In this document: positions 1 through 6,635 of the stretch, piece after piece
Layout of the letters: the number at the start of each line of letters is the position of its first letter
Numbering within the stretch: position 1 is the first letter of the stretch
Virus record (IMG/VR): IMGVR_UViG_2574180227_000018
Strand: one strand, 5' to 3'
Origin: a virus
Lineage: Duplodnaviria > Heunggongvirae > Uroviricota > Caudoviricetes
DNA length: 6,635 nucleotides
The notes under the pieces: generated by a model
Told to the model about the DNA's origin: nothing
The model's database searches: none
What the model saw: the letters and a program-made list of their open reading frames with translations, nothing else
Translations under genes and position numbers: made by a program

Positions 1-1053
1 TTAAACTTCGTTTAACGCTTCCTGTATTCTTCGACCAATCCATTTCATGACCGGTACAGGCATTGAATTTCCAATGGCCTTATAACGATGAGCTGGAGAT
101 GAATTTTTCCATGGAATATCTGTATATCCATCGGGAAAACCTTGTAGCCTCTCGCATTCGGTTGGCGTCAACCTACGAACCCTTGAATATGGCGCTCTTT
201 CAACTATGAGCCCACCAGACATAGTCATGTCCTGGTTAGTTGTTCCGTTATAGCCAGCTATTACTGTGCCTGTTCGTTTTGGCAATGCTTCAAGGCAATA
301 TCGGTGCAATTTTCCTTCAATGCCTTGATCAAGAAGGGATTCGGATTTTTTCTTCTTTCCGTAATAGTTTTTATCGCCCTGCGACACAGGCGGGAACTCA
401 AATAATACCTTTCCGGGATCGAGCCTTTTTCCAGCACTTGCCACAACAAACACTCTTCTGCGAGCCTGGGCGACTCCGAAATATTGGGCATCAAGTACTC
501 GCCAGGCGACGATACGCGATGGTCCAGACACAACACCAGCGTTTGCCCATCTTTTCCTTGCTGGCTGTAATGCGCAACCTGCTCCGGCCAGCGCACCAAG
601 AAAATGACCGAATGCATTGTCATGGCTACTTAAAACTCCTGTGACGTTTTCCCATACGATTATTGAGGGGGATTTATTGAGCGATGCCCGAACGGTATCT
701 ATCTGATTCGCCAGTTCAACAAAAGACAGTGTTAACTGCCCCCGTGGATCTGAAAGGCCTTTTCGTTTGCCTGACATACTGAATGCCTGACACGGAGTTC
801 CACCTACAAGAATATCTGGTGCTTCAATAAGCCCATCCCTGATACGAGGCGCAAGCAAAGCCATATCACCAAGATTTGGTATATGGGGCCAGCGATATGA
901 AAGAAGTGTTGACGGGAAGTCCTCTATTTCACTGAACCATCTGGCTTTCCAGCCAAGATTGCTCCAGGCTACTGTCGCAGCTTCAATACCACTGCATACT
1001 GAACCATAGGTTAGTGACTTATCAGACTGAAAGTAATGTTTCTTGTTCCCCAC
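1..1053 (-). CDS. DNA (cytosine-5)-methyltransferase, phage-type, complete (GTG start at 1053, stop codon at 1-3)
   Basis: 350-aa ORF carrying C5-MTase motifs in canonical order: catalytic PCQ (GGTPCQAFS), ENV (VWENVTG), QxRxR (QARRRVFVV), and C-terminal RRLTPTECERLQGFPDGYT and AIGNSMPVPV. Gly-rich N-terminal motif I-like stretch (VCSGIEAA). SD-like AAGGAAA lies 7 nt upstream of the GTG. Short target-recognition region between motifs VIII and IX. Confidence 0.9.
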   Translation of the reverse strand: MGNKKHYFQSDKSLTYGSVCSGIEAATVAWSNLGWKARWFSEIEDFPSTLLSYRWPHIPNLGDMALLAPRIRDGLIEAPDILVGGTPCQAFSMSGKRKGLSDPRGQLTLSFVELANQIDTVRASLNKSPSIIVWENVTGVLSSHDNAFGHFLGALAGAGCALQPARKRWANAGVVSGPSRIVAWRVLDAQYFGVAQARRRVFVVASAGKRLDPGKVLFEFPPVSQGDKNYYGKKKKSESLLDQGIEGKLHRYCLEALPKRTGTVIAGYNGTTNQDMTMSGGLIVERAPYSRVRRLTPTECERLQGFPDGYTDIPWKNSSPAHRYKAIGNSMPVPVMKWIGRRIQEALNEV

Positions 1054-1207
1054 GGCAGGATTTCCTTGTGTATGTGGGGTGCTCTGTGGCGCTCTGAGAT
1101 GTGATTTGATTGAGGGTTTTGCAGCGCGGACATTTTACTTCCAGATAACTGAAACTGGCCCGTGCCAGTAGCTTATTGCAGTGTCGGCACCGTATGTTTC
1201 GATACAT
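1022..1207 (-). CDS. com: Com-like C4 zinc-finger protein (phage Mu Com family translational activator); overlaps the methyltransferase start by 32 nt
   Basis: Translation MYRNIRCRHCNKLLARASFSYLEVKCPRCKTLNQI...EHPTYTRKSC has two CxxC knuckles with Mu Com-like spacing and flanking residues (IRCxxCNKLL, CPRCK, EHPT), as I recall the Mu Com sequence. ATG at 1207 is preceded by AGGAGG with 10-nt spacing; the ORF track's longer form (to 1252) starts on a non-ATG codon with no SD. Its 3' end overlaps the downstream DNA-modification gene, as com does with mom. Confidence 0.7.
   Translation of the reverse strand: MYRNIRCRHCNKLLARASFSYLEVKCPRCKTLNQITSQSATEHPTYTRKSCRGEQETLLSV
1048..1079 (-). promoter_or_regulatory. 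mRNA hairpin sequestering the methyltransferase GTG start; SD lies in the loop
   Basis: Inverted repeat ccccac (1048-1053) and gtgggg (1074-1079). In the minus-strand mRNA the 6-bp GC-rich stem pairs CCCCAC with GUGGGG, which is the GTG start plus the next codon. The 20-nt loop contains the AAGGAAA SD. Confidence 0.35.
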
Positions 1208-1616
1208 GGCCGCATAACCTCCTGCTTTGTTGTTGATGCCTTTCTCATGCAATCGATCGACAAAAACGATCGATTCGGTTTGTTTAATTGATACAACAAA
1301 TAGATTGAAAAGTCATCAACAATGATTCAGGGCGGTGATTATTTACTTAAAGAAAACGAAGAGTTAGGTGGTGAAAACGATCATAAAATGATCATTTTAT
1401 TGACTTTTTATACAGTGAAGGTAGGATTGTGCGTATATGTAGTATGTTTCAAATCAATGGGATACTACATACATAAAGGGCGACCCAGATAGCGCGAACT
1501 ATTCTGGGCCGATTTAGACAATTTTGCATCAATGCTTTACTTCGAGCTCGTGGCGTATCCTATGATATTCCCCGGTCTCCTGTAAAGCAGAGATGCATAA
1601 AAAGGAGATCTTTATC
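1208..1616. promoter_or_regulatory. Divergent intergenic regulatory region containing four GATC (Dam) sites in two close pairs
   Basis: AT-rich 409-bp region between divergent com (minus) and the small + strand gene. GATC at 1255-1258 and 1268-1271 sit in repeated TCGATCGA and CGATCGAT contexts; GATC at 1379-1382 and 1390-1393 sit in the inverted repeat GATCATAAAATGATCA. TTGACT at 1400-1405 is a possible -35 for the + strand gene. Promoters not confidently placed. Confidence 0.3.
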
Positions 1617-1787
1617 ATGGATAAAGAGCCTGTTTACCCTGCCTGTAAGACTCCCTTACAGCTCATCTATCGCCGTTCTCGATCTCAAAATGGCAAGACA
1701 TACAAACCAAAAAATGCTTCCTGTTTCAGGATGCTGATATGCCCTGCCTGTTCTCCCCAGAGGGAAAATACACAAAACGTGCATTAA
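1617..1787 (+). CDS. Hypothetical small Cys-containing protein (56 aa from ATG 1617; ORF track gives 64 aa from 1593)
   Basis: AAAGGAG SD at 1601-1607, 9 nt before ATG 1617. Product MDKEPVYPACKTPLQLIYRRSRSQNGKTYKPKNASCFRMLICPACSP has a CPxC knuckle plus two more Cys and is basic. No family recognised. Confidence 0.45.
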   Translation: MDKEPVYPACKTPLQLIYRRSRSQNGKTYKPKNASCFRMLICPACSPQRENTQNVH

Positions 1788-1796
1788 CAAATTCCC

Positions 1797-1816
1797 CCGG
1801 CAGGGAAACCTGCCGG
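1797..1816. terminator. Hairpin between convergent stop codons (8-bp stem, GAAA loop)
   Basis: ccggcagg gaaa cctgccgg lies between the + gene stop (1785-1787) and the minus gene stop (1826-1828). Flanking U-tracts are weak on both strands. Confidence 0.4.
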
Positions 1817-1825
1817 TCGGTATTG

Positions 1826-2071
1826 TTACATCATAGTACCGTCAGTTCCGGGCTGAACCGGCTCTGGTTGCTCTACGGGTTGAGGAGCATTTTCCGTGCT
1901 GTTTTCAGCCGGAGAACGGCCAACCATTCGGGCCAGCACTTCATCAACATATGCGTCGATTTGTGCCTCAAAATCCTTGCGAACCTGCGCCTTCAGCACG
2001 CGGTTCACTTCTTCAGAATAAAGTGCCTGTTTGACAAGCTCTTCAGTAACCGTGCCTTTAATCTCTGGCAT
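1826..2071 (-). CDS. Hypothetical protein, 81 aa (helical N-terminal half, Pro/Glu/Gln-rich acidic tail)
   Basis: Strong SD AAGGAG 7 nt upstream of ATG 2071. Protein-like composition. Starts 35 bp downstream of the 60-aa gene, so likely co-transcribed with it. Confidence 0.6.
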   Translation of the reverse strand: MPEIKGTVTEELVKQALYSEEVNRVLKAQVRKDFEAQIDAYVDEVLARMVGRSPAENSTENAPQPVEQPEPVQPGTDGTMM

Positions 2072-2106
2072 GAATATTCTCCTTTTGCAGGTATATTGCC
2101 CCGTTA

Positions 2107-2289
2107 TCAGAGCGGGGTCGGGTCGTTTGGGGATGATGGTGCCTGTGCTGTTTTACTGAGCTTTTCGGCTGCTGCGTCATCAATTTTGCGGCGAATATAA
2201 TTTCTGATGACCTTATAACCGCCGCTCACCAGATATAACGCACTGACCACAGCGCAGAAATAAAGCAGCATTGTATGAACGAATGTCAT
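2107..2289 (-). CDS. Hypothetical small membrane protein, 60 aa (one N-terminal transmembrane helix, charged C-terminal tail)
   Basis: SD TAAGG upstream of ATG 2289. Hydrophobic segment LLYFCAVVSALYLVSGG followed by KVIRNYIRRK. Confidence 0.5.
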   Translation of the reverse strand: MTFVHTMLLYFCAVVSALYLVSGGYKVIRNYIRRKIDDAAAEKLSKTAQAPSSPNDPTPL

Positions 2290-2358
2290 ATAACCTTACC
2301 TTTGATATTGACTACATAATTCGTTATCGGGTAAAAACATGACGAAGTGACTGGTAAC

Positions 2359-2384
2359 TACTCCTTCGGGAGTATTTTTATTTT
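2359..2384 (+). terminator. Intrinsic terminator-like hairpin, + strand orientation (6-bp stem, UUCG tetraloop, T-tract)
   Basis: tactcc ttcg ggagta followed by tttttatttt. The U-tract follows the hairpin only on the + strand. Confidence 0.4.
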
Positions 2385-2403
2385 CCTTTATGGGTTAGGT
2401 AGC

Positions 2404-2440
2404 TCCCGCCAGCCATATCATGACCGGCGGGATTTTTTTT
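2404..2440 (+). terminator. Intrinsic terminator-like hairpin, + strand orientation (7-bp GC stem, T8 tract)
   Basis: tcccgcc, a 15-nt loop, ggcggga, then tttttttt (2433-2440). On the minus strand the hairpin sits just after the esterase stop but has no following U-tract. Confidence 0.4.
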
Positions 2441-4478
2441 ATTCTGTTACCGCTTTTTTCACTTCCACCACAATGCTGTCAATCAGCACCGGGTAAGTTG
2501 CATTTTTGGTGATATCCGTTACGCGGAGTTTGTCCACCGGGAAAGTTCCTACTGGTGACTGCGTCAGGGTAAACGCGGCACCATCCTGACCATCAATAAC
2601 CGGAATAACCTGAAGGCTGTTATTTCCTGCAAAACGGAAGGCCAGCGTATGCCATTCATTATCAAATACACCAAAGGTTCCCAGTTTCTGGTTATTTGTT
2701 GCCACTTTTGCATTGTGGTGCATCACATTCAGGTCTTTTGCGTCTGTCTGGATGTAGAACGATGCCAGCAGATTATTCCCTGCATCCCCTGTCAGGGTGA
2801 CACCCTGCGGCAGAGAGGAAACCGGCCAGTAAAGCGCCATGACATACTGGTTTGCCACCAGGTCGCCAGGTACTTTAAAACGACAACTGATTAAACCACC
2901 ATTTTTCAGCAGTTCAGCACCAGTACCGGCATCATGATCCAGATACCAGGATGATTTACCTGTTTCCTTGGTCAGTTTCATTGCCTTACCACCTGTGCCT
3001 CCTGCATCACTGATAATTTCAGCTTTACCGCCAGCCGGCTCCCAGCCCTGGGCTTTCAGATTTCCTTCTGACTCACTGACACGGTAAGACAGCAGTGTTG
3101 TGGTTACTGCTTCAGTTTCTGAAGGTGACGGCACTGGTGCTTCAGTTTCAGAAGATGGAACATCGGCTTTTACTGTGGTTCGCCCTGCATGAGTCAGAAC
3201 AGCCGTGGCCAGACGGTCGGAAATAATCCCACGACGTGCCCATGAACTGAAATGGCTGGCCCGGCCCGCAGATGTCCAGGTGGCGGCACTGTTACGCCAC
3301 GTTGAGCCGTAATAACCAATGGATTCAATATCCGGGTCTTCTGTCGGATTGTTGGTGGGTACATTCGCGCCATTTTCATCTGTCATTAATGGGACGAAAT
3401 GAATGTTTTTATCTGTTTTATTTTTGTAGCCGTCATAGATTGCCTGGTATGCCTGTTCGTTTTTCTGTTTCCAGAAATACGTGGTATCGCCACAAATCCA
3501 CGGAACGCCAGCAGCACTGCCACCGGTACACTGTTCCGCCTGTTCAGCCAAGTCTGCGCGGAATTTTTCCACCATCGCCAGAAACAGCGCGGAATGCTCC
3601 GTCGGCTTCGCATCAATATCAAACTCGCCCTGCATCCACACCACAGCAAGCAGGCGGTTTTTCGGGTTCTTCGCCAGTGCCGCTTTTGTCCGGCTGATTA
3701 AGTCCTTATACAGCGGCTTATCCACACCCCAGCGGGCTGAGTCCTCTGAAGCACCCGTGCTGTCACTGTACGTGCCGTCAGCACCCGCCGTGAATGCAGA
3801 ACCACCACGGCAGCAGGGAACCAGCAGAATCCCCGCATCTGCCGGAATAAACGGCAGCAGTTTTTTGGCAATGTGAAGCCCCTGACCCACGGTGCCATAT
3901 TGCCCTTTAGCCACATCCGCTTTCGGGTGATTTTTTCCACTCATATCCTGCACATCATGCAGACAGTGGTCGGCCAGAATGATGTCGTTATACTGACAGG
4001 CTTTACCTCCCGGCGTGACTGTACTGCGACGGGCTAACTGCATAATACGCGGTTCGGGGTGGTCATATGTCTCCGGCAGCGGCAGACCTTCACCGTAGGC
4101 CATCCCGTTTGACTGACCAGCAAGAACCACCACGTAATACCAGGAAGGGGAGCTGGAAGCAGTTTCATTTCCTGACGGACGGGTATGTGTTTCAGCATTA
4201 TCCCAGTCTGACGGTTCAGCAGTACCGGCAACATCAGCACTTAACGGAATGACAGCACCAATACCCGCACCGGTAATTTCCACGCTCGGATCACCGGATA
4301 CTGGCCTTACCCACAGGCAATCCCGTGTATTAAAACTGATGAGACAGTCAGCAAATGTCATTCCTCCTTTTGTTTCGGCCGGAGGAAAGGGAGCCTCAAG
4401 AAATGCCGCTGTACCACCGGAAACTTTAACAGTAAAGTTTCCGGGCATTGATGATAGTTGAACCCATTTGGACGTCAT
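2439..4478 (-). CDS. SGNH/SASA-family carbohydrate esterase (sialate O-acetylesterase-like, prophage NanS-p-like architecture), 679 aa, three domains
   Basis: GQSN catalytic-serine motif in VVVLAGQSNGMAYGEG and a downstream WMQGEFD block, typical of sialate O-acetylesterase/SASA domains. About 110 aa of N-terminal domain, a Ser/Pro/Glu/Thr linker with tandem SETEA repeats, and about 250 aa of C-terminal Gly/Thr-rich, probably beta-rich domain. No signal peptide. ATG at 4478. Confidence 0.8.
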   Translation of the reverse strand: MTSKWVQLSSMPGNFTVKVSGGTAAFLEAPFPPAETKGGMTFADCLISFNTRDCLWVRPVSGDPSVEITGAGIGAVIPLSADVAGTAEPSDWDNAETHTRPSGNETASSSPSWYYVVVLAGQSNGMAYGEGLPLPETYDHPEPRIMQLARRSTVTPGGKACQYNDIILADHCLHDVQDMSGKNHPKADVAKGQYGTVGQGLHIAKKLLPFIPADAGILLVPCCRGGSAFTAGADGTYSDSTGASEDSARWGVDKPLYKDLISRTKAALAKNPKNRLLAVVWMQGEFDIDAKPTEHSALFLAMVEKFRADLAEQAEQCTGGSAAGVPWICGDTTYFWKQKNEQAYQAIYDGYKNKTDKNIHFVPLMTDENGANVPTNNPTEDPDIESIGYYGSTWRNSAATWTSAGRASHFSSWARRGIISDRLATAVLTHAGRTTVKADVPSSETEAPVPSPSETEAVTTTLLSYRVSESEGNLKAQGWEPAGGKAEIISDAGGTGGKAMKLTKETGKSSWYLDHDAGTGAELLKNGGLISCRFKVPGDLVANQYVMALYWPVSSLPQGVTLTGDAGNNLLASFYIQTDAKDLNVMHHNAKVATNNQKLGTFGVFDNEWHTLAFRFAGNNSLQVIPVIDGQDGAAFTLTQSPVGTFPVDKLRVTDITKNATYPVLIDSIVVEVKKAVTE

Positions 4479-4577: not shown

Positions 4578-5138
4578 TTATTTTTCCGAAACGCTCGCAG
4601 GATAATAACGATAAAGGGTTGAAAGGCCGATATCAAAAATAAGTGCCACCTGTCTTCGGCTGACACCCCCGGCCAGTAAACGCCCGACCTGCTCGTATTG
4701 TTCCTGCGTGAGACGACGGGGTCTGCCGCCGGTTCGTCCCCTTTCACGGGCAGCAGCAAGACCAGCCCGTGTCCGTTCGACAATCAATTCACGCTCCATT
4801 TCTGCCAGCGCACCCATTATGTGAAAAAAGAAGCGCCCCATGGGGGTTGACGTATCAATGTTGTCAGTAAGACTACGAAAATTTATCCCCTGTTGCTGTA
4901 ATTCATCTGTCAGCGCAACAAGGTGGCGCATACTGCGCCCCAGCCTGTCCAGTTTCCAGACCATCAGTGTGTCGCCGGGTTTTAGTTTCTTCAGTGCCCG
5001 CTTCAGTCCCGGCCGCTGCGTCGTTTTACCACTCATTTTGTCTTCAAAAATCTGCTCACATCCTGCACATTCCAGCGCATTTCTTTGTAAACCTGTGTTC
5101 TGGTCATTTGTTGATACGCGTATATAGCCAATCAGCAT
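4578..5138 (-). CDS. pin: Serine recombinase, DNA invertase of the Pin/Gin/Hin/Cin family, 186 aa
   Basis: N-terminus MLIGYIRVSTNDQNTGLQ carries the catalytic Ser motif. Resolvase-type catalytic domain (VWKLDRLGRS, MGALAEMERELI) and C-terminal HTH (GGVSRRQVALIFDIGLSTLYRY). SD AAGGAAGG 7 nt upstream of the ATG. Immediately adjacent to an inverted-repeat-bounded segment. Confidence 0.95.
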   Translation of the reverse strand: MLIGYIRVSTNDQNTGLQRNALECAGCEQIFEDKMSGKTTQRPGLKRALKKLKPGDTLMVWKLDRLGRSMRHLVALTDELQQQGINFRSLTDNIDTSTPMGRFFFHIMGALAEMERELIVERTRAGLAAARERGRTGGRPRRLTQEQYEQVGRLLAGGVSRRQVALIFDIGLSTLYRYYPASVSEK

Positions 5139-5192: not shown

Positions 5193-5218
5193 ATCCCTGA
5201 AACCTCGGTTTACGGGAA
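5193..5218. other. Left inversion crossover site (gix/pix-like: two 12-bp half-sites around central TC at 5205-5206)
   Basis: atccctgaaacc tc ggtttacgggaa is an imperfect palindrome resembling the gix/hix core (AAACC-TC-GGTTT). An identical 26-bp copy lies inverted at the right edge. Confidence 0.7.
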
Positions 5219-5226
5219 ACGGTAAA
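5201..5226. repeat. Inverted repeat, left arm (26 bp, perfect match to reverse complement of 6610-6635)
   Basis: aacctcggtttacgggaaacggtaaa compared by eye with the reverse complement of the last 26 bases of the window. Confidence 0.85.
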
Positions 5227-5587
5227 CAGGGCGGCGAATGCCCTGCCATCGAACGGAACGGCCGTTGCCGCGAACAGGCTGGCAAATGCCCACACAATTA
5301 ATGGTGTTCCCTTTGACGGAACGCAGGATATCAACATTACCTCCGGTATGACCGAAGCTGCTGCTGATAACAAATACGTTCGCAACGTTCAGCTTGGTGC
5401 CCAGAGTTACCATTCACCCGGAGGTAATGAAATGTCCTGGAGTTATGGCGCGCCTTCCGGTTGTATGCTTTCAGGTATTAACGTGCAGGAGACCGGGAGA
5501 AATTCAGCCGATAATATCGGAGGCGTTTATTACCGTCCGGTGCAGATATATATCGGTAATGCCTGGCGCACAGTTTCATCCGTCTGA
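5201..5587 (+). CDS. Silent alternative tail-fiber C-terminal cassette (Sv'-like); no start of its own in this orientation
   Basis: Open frame begins right after a TGA at 5198-5200 and runs through the recombination site to the stop at 5585-5587. The encoded NLGLRETVNRAANALPSNGTAVAANRLA...INGVPFDGTQDINITSGM... parallels the minus-strand fiber C-terminus (NLGLRETVNKAADALPSGGTAVAANRLA...INGVPFDGTRDINITSGM...), and the ends are similar (VYYRPVQIYIGNAW versus VYYRQIQYCINGNW). Confidence 0.7.
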   Translation, partial: NLGLRETVNRAANALPSNGTAVAANRLANAHTINGVPFDGTQDINITSGMTEAAADNKYVRNVQLGAQSYHSPGGNEMSWSYGAPSGCMLSGINVQETGRNSADNIGGVYYRPVQIYIGNAWRTVSSV

Positions 5588-6263: not shown

Positions 6264-6635
6264 TTAAATACTTGCAGCGGATACCCAATTCCCATTAATA
6301 CAATATTGTATCTGTCTGTAATAAACACGGTCATCACCACCACGCATTTCCCAGTCTCCGTCAGTCTTAAAACCGGTAATCACATTTCCTGATGACAGGG
6401 AGTAATTATATTCCAGTACGCCGCTTAATGCCTGCGCTCCCAGTCTTACCCCTGTAACATAACGCTGATTGGCCGTTGATTCCGGCATTCCTGACGTAAT
6501 GTTTATATCCCGCGTCCCGTCGAAAGGAACACCATTAATATTTCTTGGGGTGGCGAGTCTGTTTGCTGCCACGGCGGTTCCCCCCGATGGCAGGGCATCA
6601 GCGGCCTTATTTACCGTTTCCCGTAAACCGAGGTT
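6264..6635 (-). CDS. Tail fiber protein, C-terminal variable part (Sv-like), 5'-truncated by the window edge; currently expressed orientation
   Basis: The reading frame is open from the last base of the window through the inverted repeat to the stop at 6264-6266. The ORF-track GTG at 6572 is internal. Homologous to the + strand cassette. Confidence 0.8.
   Translation of the reverse strand, partial: NLGLRETVNKAADALPSGGTAVAANRLATPRNINGVPFDGTRDINITSGMPESTANQRYVTGVRLGAQALSGVLEYNYSLSSGNVITGFKTDGDWEMRGGDDRVYYRQIQYCINGNWVSAASI
6610..6635. repeat. Inverted repeat, right arm (26 bp), part of the right inversion site, which continues past the window edge
   Basis: Reverse complement equals 5201-5226. 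The predicted crossover dinucleotide is at 6630-6631, so the outer half-site lies beyond the window. Confidence 0.85.

Follow-up and report, generated by a model that had tools for sequence, protein, structure and literature searches.

Is the divergent side of the com control region empty in Mu-like prophages, or does it hold a gene of its own? In phage Mu, com-mom is a textbook example of multilayered control, in which Dam, OxyR, C, Fis, Com and the divergent promoter momP2 all take part. The question is raised by a stretch of 6,635 nucleotides (nt) that forms the right end of a Mu-like Escherichia coli prophage (IMG/VR virus record IMGVR_UViG_2574180227_000018, Caudoviricetes), of the type named Sp18 in O157:H7 Sakai; we refer to this whole stretch as the window and number positions from its first letter. 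An open reading frame (ORF) of 56 amino acids (aa) at 1617..1787 on the + strand faces away from com, and an original prediction, made from the letters alone, had taken it for a genuine small gene. We find that this ORF is a real, conserved small gene under purifying selection, with a conserved position, and judging from its sequence the product is a member of a previously unnamed, narrowly distributed zinc-ribbon family of the form CPxC-x31-CPxC. As the best overall explanation we propose, as probable though well short of certain, that Sp18-type Mu-like prophages have at 1617..1787 a real small gene, monocistronic and with a leader-gated zinc-ribbon product.

The ORF encodes MDKEPVYPACKTPLQLIYRRSRSQNGKTYKPKNASCFRMLICPACSPQRENTQNVH and ends with the TAA stop codon at 1785-1787. 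Its product is basic (isoelectric point 9.69; 10 Lys and Arg residues vs 3 Asp and Glu) and hydrophilic (grand average of hydropathicity, GRAVY, of -0.9, with no membrane helix). A CPAC knuckle occupies residues 42-45 (nt 1740-1751), and the Shine-Dalgarno sequence (SD) AAGGAG stands at 1602-1607, 9 nt upstream of the ATG at 1617, so that the basic ORF with a CPxC knuckle and a good SD was found as predicted. An alternative in-frame ATG at 1593 would yield 64 aa and has no SD.

The availability of many related prophages allows the frame to be judged by its conservation. Among E. coli prophages, where about 55 loci gave 25 unique haplotypes, the small ORF is open in 25 of 25; of the longer stretch annotated as one gene (1322..1787, see below), only the last 53-56 codons are conserved. 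Thirteen substitutions fall within it, 8 synonymous and 5 non-synonymous, where the expected synonymous fraction is 0.25 (binomial P=0.0056); the two other frames over the same DNA give synonymous to non-synonymous ratios of 2:11 (the overlapping long frame described below) and 4:9.

Outside E. coli, HMMER was run exhaustively over 1.84 billion representative proteins and returned a sole remote relative, a 53-aa protein of Salmonella enterica, MDKEARLCPSCHEQMTPIFRGSFTRKGKTYRPKKAASFPIWLCPKCSPAEESH (43-48% identity, E 9e-7). Its gene type lies divergent from com, in the same place, in the Mu-like prophages L058, L059 and L121-L124 (L-numbers are our labels for the compared prophage loci; three of these are further IMG/VR contigs), where com is followed by mom or a Dcm-type methylase and the other flank is unrelated to that in E. 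coli. The E. coli and Salmonella ORFs share 58% nt identity (0.62/0.73/0.40 by codon position), with a non-synonymous divergence (pN) of 0.32 and a synonymous divergence (pS) of 0.78, the latter saturated, and changes within the Salmonella-type clade comprise 5 synonymous and 4 conservative ones. The openness of the frame in every E. coli haplotype, the synonymous excess and the positional orthologue in Salmonella Mu-like prophages together uphold the earlier claim of a genuine small gene, convergent on a DUF826 gene and divergent from com, and show its frame to be conserved in related prophages.

Several further searches were made for relatives. With tblastn, phage and plasmid collections returned E. 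coli Mu-like copies only; GTDB species-representative genomes, scanned once with the protein and once with the alignment, yielded no relative; a 15-mer scan of IMG/VR gave mainly chance matches; and blastn of the leader described below against 111 loci revealed no new type. Word-indexed protein searches mostly miss the gene because gene callers call an overlapping long ORF.

This long ORF is at the root of the existing annotation. In near-identical records the NCBI Prokaryotic Genome Annotation Pipeline (PGAP) has annotated 1322..1787 as a 154-aa pseudogene, 'hypothetical protein, frameshifted', because an uninterrupted 154-aa ORF exists in O157:H7 (WP_115801860); other gene callers report an ORF of 135-137 aa that begins at the same ATG, is in another frame and overlaps the small ORF (PHROG 26524). 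In the window the long frame is interrupted by a stop codon at 1490-1492. The 154-aa form is produced by a single extra G just after the ATG GAT of the small ORF, an insertion that also makes a new in-frame ATG (ATGG-ATG-AAA-GAG), with the zinc-ribbon frame surviving as MKEPVCPAC..., and that is also found on the type C haplotype, whose upstream frame is closed. Substitutions in the long frame number 0:7 (synonymous to non-synonymous) in the overlap and 8:14 in the upstream 100 codons, vs 6:16 in control frames, and the continuous reading frame from the ATG at 1322 to the stop at 1787 was not conserved. Since the 53-56-codon ORF alone is conserved and the upstream frame is not, we reject the pseudogene model and describe its upstream part as follows.

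1322..1616, + strand: upstream part of the annotated 'frameshifted hypothetical protein'; not coding, it spans the com/mom control region, the promoter and the leader.

The predicted promoter and leader RNA of the small gene are made up of the following elements, listed with a promoter-like site on the opposite strand.

1400..1427, + strand: sigma-70 promoter with TTGACT (1400-1405), a 16-nt spacer and TAGGAT (1422-1427), recognized by promoter scan and hexamer conservation.
1436..1471, + strand: stem-loop 1 (SL1), the 5'-terminal stem-loop, TATGTAGTAT / ATACTACATA; the stem is conserved and the loop varies between E. coli and Salmonella.
1481..1511, either strand: SL2, a hairpin whose sequence varies among haplotypes with its pairing kept; the window version is the weakest.
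1525..1597, + strand: SL3, an imperfect long hairpin that is better conserved than any other non-coding block.
1557..1586, - strand: promoter-like TTTACA-18-TAGGAT inside SL3; the hexamers and the 18-nt spacing are invariant in all variants, and the spacer sequence varies.
1574..1581, + strand: anti-SD GGUCUCCU, part of the 3' arm of SL3 and the complement of the SD AGGAGAUC at 1603-1610.
1602..1627, + strand: translation initiation region, with the SD AAGGAG (1602-1607) and an 8-bp start hairpin, TCTTTATC/GATAAAGA (1609-1616 / 1620-1627), with the AUG at 1617-1619 as its 3-nt loop.

The promoter lies 7 nt from the GATC at 1390-1393 of the com control region. Its hexamers and spacing are kept in the Salmonella-type locus L058 (TTGACT-16-TAAGAT) around a different spacer sequence, and in L123 a promoter TTGACG-16-TATAAT follows unrelated upstream sequence at the same distance to SL1. 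From a predicted start at about 1434, the mRNA would carry a leader of about 180 nt with three stem-loops, followed by the start-codon hairpin. The minimum free energy (MFE) of the leader is -69 kcal/mol (z -4.3) in the window, and the Salmonella leader has the same architecture (-72 kcal/mol, z -5.9).

This leader, which is better conserved than the ORF, is probably the main regulatory element of the locus, and its conservation is uneven. Between E. coli and Salmonella it is 76% identical overall and nearly invariant over SL3 and the SD, with adjacent synonymous sites saturated; variable sites number 3.9 per 100 nt in SL3, 0 in the SD region, 7.6 in the ORF and 47 in SL2. At least four versions of SL2 exist (CCCAGCATAG/CTATGCTGGG, GGTCCAGATAG/CTATCTGGACC, GACCCGGTAG/CTACCGGGTC and the window form), all of them 10-13-bp hairpins of -13 to -22 kcal/mol, and the hairpin is duplicated in tandem in L121/L123. 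Salmonella SL3 shows one compensatory outer pair (UA>CG) and two pairs changed to wobbles, and its apical stem has been rebuilt in L121/L123 around the same TATC-CTAT-GATA apex. The whole window gave no covariance-model match in Rfam 15 at E<=1.

Because the SD can pair with the anti-SD and the AUG lies in a hairpin loop, translation of the ORF is probably gated by RNA structure. The complementarity of SD and anti-SD is kept in all seven leader variants compared (three E. coli types, L058, L121, L123, L124); the MFE structure of L121/L123/L124, whose SL3 partner has changed, contains the resulting helix, and in E. coli and L058 a fold with this helix is 5-10 kcal/mol less favourable than the MFE. 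For the start hairpin the folding energy is -9.4 kcal/mol, with a z of -1.6 that by itself lacks significance; positions 1603-1616 are free of variable sites, and the Salmonella change C1616>T retains a U.G pair. These results support, although they do not prove, translational gating by alternative leader structures.

The opposite strand of the leader also folds well (z -6.1), and here SL2 is followed by a (U)CCCUUUAUGU tail, also given as (U)CCCUUUAUGUAGU, whose U-tract is poor in haplotypes B and C. This - strand fold, together with TTTACA-18-TAGGAT and the U-tail of SL2, makes an antisense RNA, or an insulating terminator before the toxic modification operon, possible. SL2 may be an intrinsic terminator shielding com-mom from read-through, and the - strand promoter-like site could drive an antisense transcript towards com. 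A Sakai ribosome profiling (RIBOseq) supplement shows clear transcription and translation of com (ECs4997) in ordinary culture, in reads per kilobase per million (RPKM) 81.7 RNA, 727 footprints (PMC5597208); such expression would fit a constitutive promoter upstream of com, for example 1557..1586 on the - strand.

What kind of protein does the ORF specify? The family consensus is M-D-K-E-x(2,3)-C-P-x-C-x31-C-P-x-C-S-P, in basic proteins of 52-56 residues, with an invariant G-K-T-Y-(K/R)-P in the basic linker. All E. coli members with the Cys allele and all Salmonella members have CPxC at 7-10 and 42-45, with the four knuckle cysteines kept; a fifth cysteine (C36) of the E. coli copies is Ser or Asn in Salmonella. 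The AlphaFold model that had been suggested as a check, computed from the single sequence of the Cys allele, has a predicted local distance difference test score (pLDDT) of 71 and places strands 14-19 and 35-40 between the knuckles in a ribbon-like arrangement. This model suggests a two-stranded ribbon, and a Foldseek comparison with the PDB put zinc ribbons at the top without significance (best E 2.5).

The expectation that the protein would match no nameable family held in searches of Pfam, PHROGs, NCBIfam, PADLOC and the PDB, by sequence and with Foldseek. The Pfam families approached most closely were Zn_ribbon_TFIIB PF13453 (21.2 bits for the Salmonella member and 13.2 bits for E. coli, cut-off 22) and Trm112p PF03966 (17.2 bits, cut-off 22); the Tyr allele of the window had no match at all in the Pfam scan, and no match of the small protein to PF10122 (Com) appeared there. 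NCBIfam, PADLOC and PHROGs scans yielded no family for the small protein, the sole PHROG match being the wrong-frame long ORF, and neither the single protein nor a profile found anything among PDB sequences. Zinc binding by the family would follow from its paired knuckles.

The gene ends close to a further RNA element, which had been predicted as a shared GAAA-loop hairpin between the convergent stop codons and which folded as expected.

1797..1816, either strand: 8-bp GAAA-tetraloop hairpin, CCGGCAGG-GAAA-CCTGCCGG; about -22 kcal/mol on both strands, z about -4.1.

This hairpin is a probable terminator common to the convergent small gene and the DUF826 operon. At the same position Salmonella has a canonical + strand terminator, CTCCAGCC-TTAT-TGGCTGGAG-TTTTTCTGTT. 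In L006-type E. coli prophages the promoter and leader are kept to about 1595 and are then followed by an unrelated 68-aa ORF, also with an MDK start, and L057 is without both leader and ORF. Given the L006-type swap, the leader appears to be an expression platform with exchangeable cargo. We also observed that the L006 cargo (2815..3220; also in L062, L063 and L065) consists of the 68-aa + strand ORF (MDKLTTDPKLQAARIAAD...) and a convergent 66/78-aa - strand ORF, that neither matches any family, and that the pair could be a small two-gene module.

The position of the gene invites comparison with known systems of the com-mom region. Divergent promoters, momP1 and momP2, are present in the Mu Pmom region (PMC4287176, PMC3378877); for momP2, which has no known product, these papers cite Balke et al. 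1992 and Sun and Hattman 1998. Like momP2, the window promoter is a sigma-70 promoter that points away from com-mom beside Dam/OxyR GATC sites. In Mu, however, P2 overlaps P1 and gin ends right there, whereas the window promoter stands on the far side of the GATC pair, at a distance of roughly 100 bp to the presumed com promoter region (an unmapped reading), and drives a long leader and a conserved ORF; the segment showed no sequence homology to Mu.

Com of Mu is a zinc-finger translational activator. Like Com (PF10122), the family comprises basic proteins of about 60 aa with a Cys4 zinc-knuckle pattern, encoded by Mu-like phages in the same control region; both have a CP.CKT knuckle, and in both systems the start codon is buried in RNA structure. 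The knuckle spacing differs (31 vs about 17 residues), as do the strand, which is the opposite one, and the promoter, which is the gene's own. Homology to Com was rejected, as a single BLASTP comparison gave E 0.012 over 13 residues and there was no PF10122 match. Com binds a loop motif CC(N)2-3GAG (PMC6483171), and none was seen in the leader loops on reading the leader sequence.

Generic zinc ribbons (PF13453, PF03966, PhnA/YjdM PF08274, and those of serine integrases and ribosomal proteins) resemble the family in having two CPxC knuckles that flank a predicted beta-hairpin, but the basic linker of 31 residues that contains GKTY(K/R)P sets the family apart, and no curated cut-off was reached. 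Small stand-alone prophage genes of similar size and Cys4 pattern are also known in Ogr/Delta of P2 and RalR/Lar of rac. Spacing and motifs are different in these, and no such family turned up in the Pfam and NCBIfam scans; the resemblance serves as a lead only.

We propose the following mechanism. Transcription would start from the sigma-70 promoter at 1400-1427 and run away from the com-mom/com-dcm operon, from a position beside GATC (Dam/OxyR-type) sites that recalls Mu momP2. The mRNA would consist of the ~180-nt leader with its three stem-loops and then the ORF, and would end at the GAAA hairpin, with translation subject to the presumed SD gating. The product would be a nucleic-acid-binding regulator or accessory factor tied to the com-controlled DNA-modification module; such a role, linked to the com-mom control region, is our best guess.

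A number of observations weigh against this proposal, and the first concern the alleles. In the window copy, codon 7 (1635-1637) is TAC, encoding Tyr (TGC>TAC, with A at 1636), so that the two-knuckle Cys4 pattern is incomplete, and a second change is Arg49->Gln. Such a Tyr7 allele is present in 2 of 5,426 complete genomes and in three metagenomic or viral contigs. Since one of four ligands is gone, zinc binding by the window copy is doubtful and the copy is possibly impaired: the earlier expectation of a zinc-binding-type protein stands for its Cys-knuckle, zinc-ribbon character and is in doubt for zinc binding by this copy. Together with the weakest version of SL2, the two substitutions may leave the window copy functionally impaired. 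Carried by 139 of about 200 complete-genome records, as compared with about 60 for the plain Cys allele, the +G allele is the commonest in complete genomes of Shiga toxin-producing E. coli (also in L003). In it the start moves to the ATG 4 nt downstream (MKEP...), the SD spacing becomes 13 nt and the start-codon hairpin weakens from -9.4 to -5.3 kcal/mol; this shift of the start could lower expression. The E. coli copy in L005 is without the SD spacer, and the Salmonella-type copy in L124 is frameshifted in an A-run.

The remaining points are more general. The family is restricted to Mu-like prophages of E. coli and Salmonella, and the substitution counts are small because the family is narrow. 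Given that the ORF is replaceable, selection may act on the leader and not on the protein, and counts of G.U vs A.C changes (5 vs 3) decided no preference for the strand of the leader. No transcript or translation data for the 56-aa ORF were found in the literature; nor did we find any mention there of ECs4996, which is absent from the Sakai RIBOseq and small-gene supplements.

Other explanations are possible for the same locus. One is that the gene specifies an accessory ('moron') product, expressed in the lysogen and with a target of its own (anti-restriction, anti-defence or superinfection exclusion), for which the com neighbourhood is a permissive cargo slot. Its own sigma-70 promoter and terminator and its orientation against the late operon would suit such a gene; the slot carries other cargo elsewhere (nanS-p/DUF1378/DUF826, the 68-aa ORF, three Salmonella ORFs), and the adjoining module is itself anti-restriction. 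However, PADLOC and the anti-defence families gave no match, and in every context seen the linkage to com and its control region is constant whereas the other flank varies. We regard this explanation as unlikely.

It may also be that the reading frame is incidental and that selection acts on a structured RNA or DNA element between com and DUF826, namely an insulator or terminator array for the toxic modification operon or a momP2-like decoy promoter. This would account for a leader more conserved than the ORF, for the replacement of the ORF in L006-type prophages and the deletion of leader and ORF in L057, and for an SL2 whose pairing is kept by compensatory change, whose - strand tail contains U and which is duplicated in L121/L123; momP2 of Mu, too, has no known product. 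It leaves unexplained a codon-position pattern and a synonymous excess that are specific to the frame of the ORF, the invariant SD, the Cys ligands conserved across 58% nt identity, and the dedicated terminator that Salmonella has right behind the stop codon. We therefore hold an incidental frame to be quite improbable.

A type I toxin-antitoxin-like or cis-antisense module is a further alternative, in which an SD-sequestered mRNA for a basic zinc-ribbon protein would be repressed by an antisense RNA that starts from 1586-1557 and ends at SL2. Long folded 5' untranslated regions with an occluded SD are typical of hok-type mRNAs, and RalR/Lar of the rac prophage is an earlier example of a type I toxin that is small, non-membrane and zinc-ribbon-like. 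The invariant hexamers and spacing of the - strand TTTACA-18-TAGGAT around a variable spacer, the - strand fold and the resemblance of SL2 on that strand to a weak intrinsic terminator would agree with such a module. Yet the protein is hydrophilic and lacks a membrane helix, it resembles no known toxin in the Pfam, NCBIfam and PADLOC scans, SL3 and the anti-SD, both on the + strand, account for the conserved hexamers just as well, and the U-tract of SL2 is poor in two haplotypes. Prophages tolerate alleles in which a zinc ligand is mutated or the start has shifted, though they tolerate the wild type too. On this balance such a module is very unlikely.

Hardly credible, finally, is that the ORF is the decayed C-terminal remnant of the 154-aa gene of the PGAP model (intact as WP_115801860), since this model, for all that it draws on the annotation of near-identical records, on the uninterrupted O157:H7 ORF (protein cluster P0026, 205 members), on the 135-aa upstream-frame ORFs gathered in PHROG 26524 and on an upstream frame that stays open over about 100 codons in the haplotypes A and B, depends on one extra G that creates a new in-frame ATG and also occurs on the type C background, and on an upstream frame that has no coding signature, crosses the promoter and three hairpins (one of them swapped wholesale between haplotypes) and in Salmonella is not conserved, ending before the small ORF. 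Programmed -1 frameshifting from the long frame into the small ORF was likewise rejected, as there is no in-phase slippery heptamer and the upstream frame is not conserved.

The surroundings of the small gene in the window are as follows.

1..1053, - strand: Dcm-type C5 DNA methyltransferase (PF00145, 350 aa), following com, where mom would stand.
1022..1207, - strand: com, the divergent neighbour of the 56-aa ORF (PF10122 match, 47.7 bits).
1826..2071, - strand: DUF826 gene (81 aa), convergent with the 56-aa ORF.
2107..2289, - strand: DUF1378 gene.
2439..4478, - strand: SASA/DUF6645 esterase, nanS-p-like.
4578..5138, - strand: Gin-type invertase, followed by the invertible tail-fibre segment.
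5348..5587, + strand: tail-fibre fragment of the invertible segment, annotated in a near-identical record.

The last of these means that the small ORF is not strictly the only + strand gene in the window, as had been stated. In phage Mu nothing separates gin from the com control region, and because Mu is empty there we take the esterase-DUF1378-DUF826 block and the 56-aa ORF to be additions of this prophage lineage; the segment is carried by about 220 of the 5,426 complete E. coli genomes. The block that lies between gin and com (1826..4478, - strand) is typical of lambdoid Shiga toxin (Stx) phages, and the window esterase is 77-81% identical to Stx-phage genes. Derivation of the segment from lambdoid Stx phages was rejected, the similarity being confined to the nanS-p gene. 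In the Salmonella-type prophage L058 the accessory slot that extends from the small gene to the tail-fibre assembly gene (6338..7274) holds three + strand ORFs (108, 81 and 122 aa), which had no precomputed Pfam match. Inverted copies of ...AACCTCGGTTTACGGGAAACGGTAAA... at 5193..5230 and 6605..6635 flank the tail-fibre segment beside the Gin-type invertase; these are presumed gix recombination sites, and the window ends within one.

Within the com operon (1..1252 region, - strand), the GTG start of the methyltransferase at 1053 lies inside a CCCCAC...GTGGGG hairpin that resembles the Mu translation-inhibition structure CCCAC...GTGGG. A pairing of com with a methylase is also found in L009, L057, L058, L121 and L124, and com-mom in most E. 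coli relatives, which suggests that Com is able to gate different DNA-modification enzymes. Between the presumed com promoter and the com SD there is a perfect 9-bp palindrome, AATCGATCG-N7-CGATCGATT (1251..1275), with four GATC-overlapping sites, which is kept in Salmonella; a second GATC pair (1379-1382 and 1390-1393) abuts the divergent promoter. These GATC sites are likely Dam/OxyR-type control sites, as in Mu.

Public annotation conceals the small gene within a false 'frameshifted' 154-aa pseudogene or a wrong-frame 135-aa ORF, and the case shows how a single-base insertion in an over-sampled lineage spreads a wrong gene model. The corrected model offers two things in defined, testable form, a candidate new leader RNA and a candidate new regulator or accessory factor; its interest rests on its fixed place in a classical control region, on the unusually conserved leader and on the annotation error that it exposes. 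A bolder extension, which at present must be called speculative and rather improbable, is that the leader is a new cis-regulatory RNA (an SL3/anti-SD/SD switch) gating a new trans-acting zinc-ribbon regulator of the com-mom/com-dcm switch, for example an antagonist that silences the lethal modification in lysogens, and the conserved antisense promoter inside the leader might then be a further layer of control. If true, the leader switch and its regulator would be a new player in a regulatory circuit studied for decades. In Mu-like prophages of pathogenic E. coli (Sp18 of O157:H7 and its relatives) and of Salmonella, the divergent side of the com-mom region is not empty.

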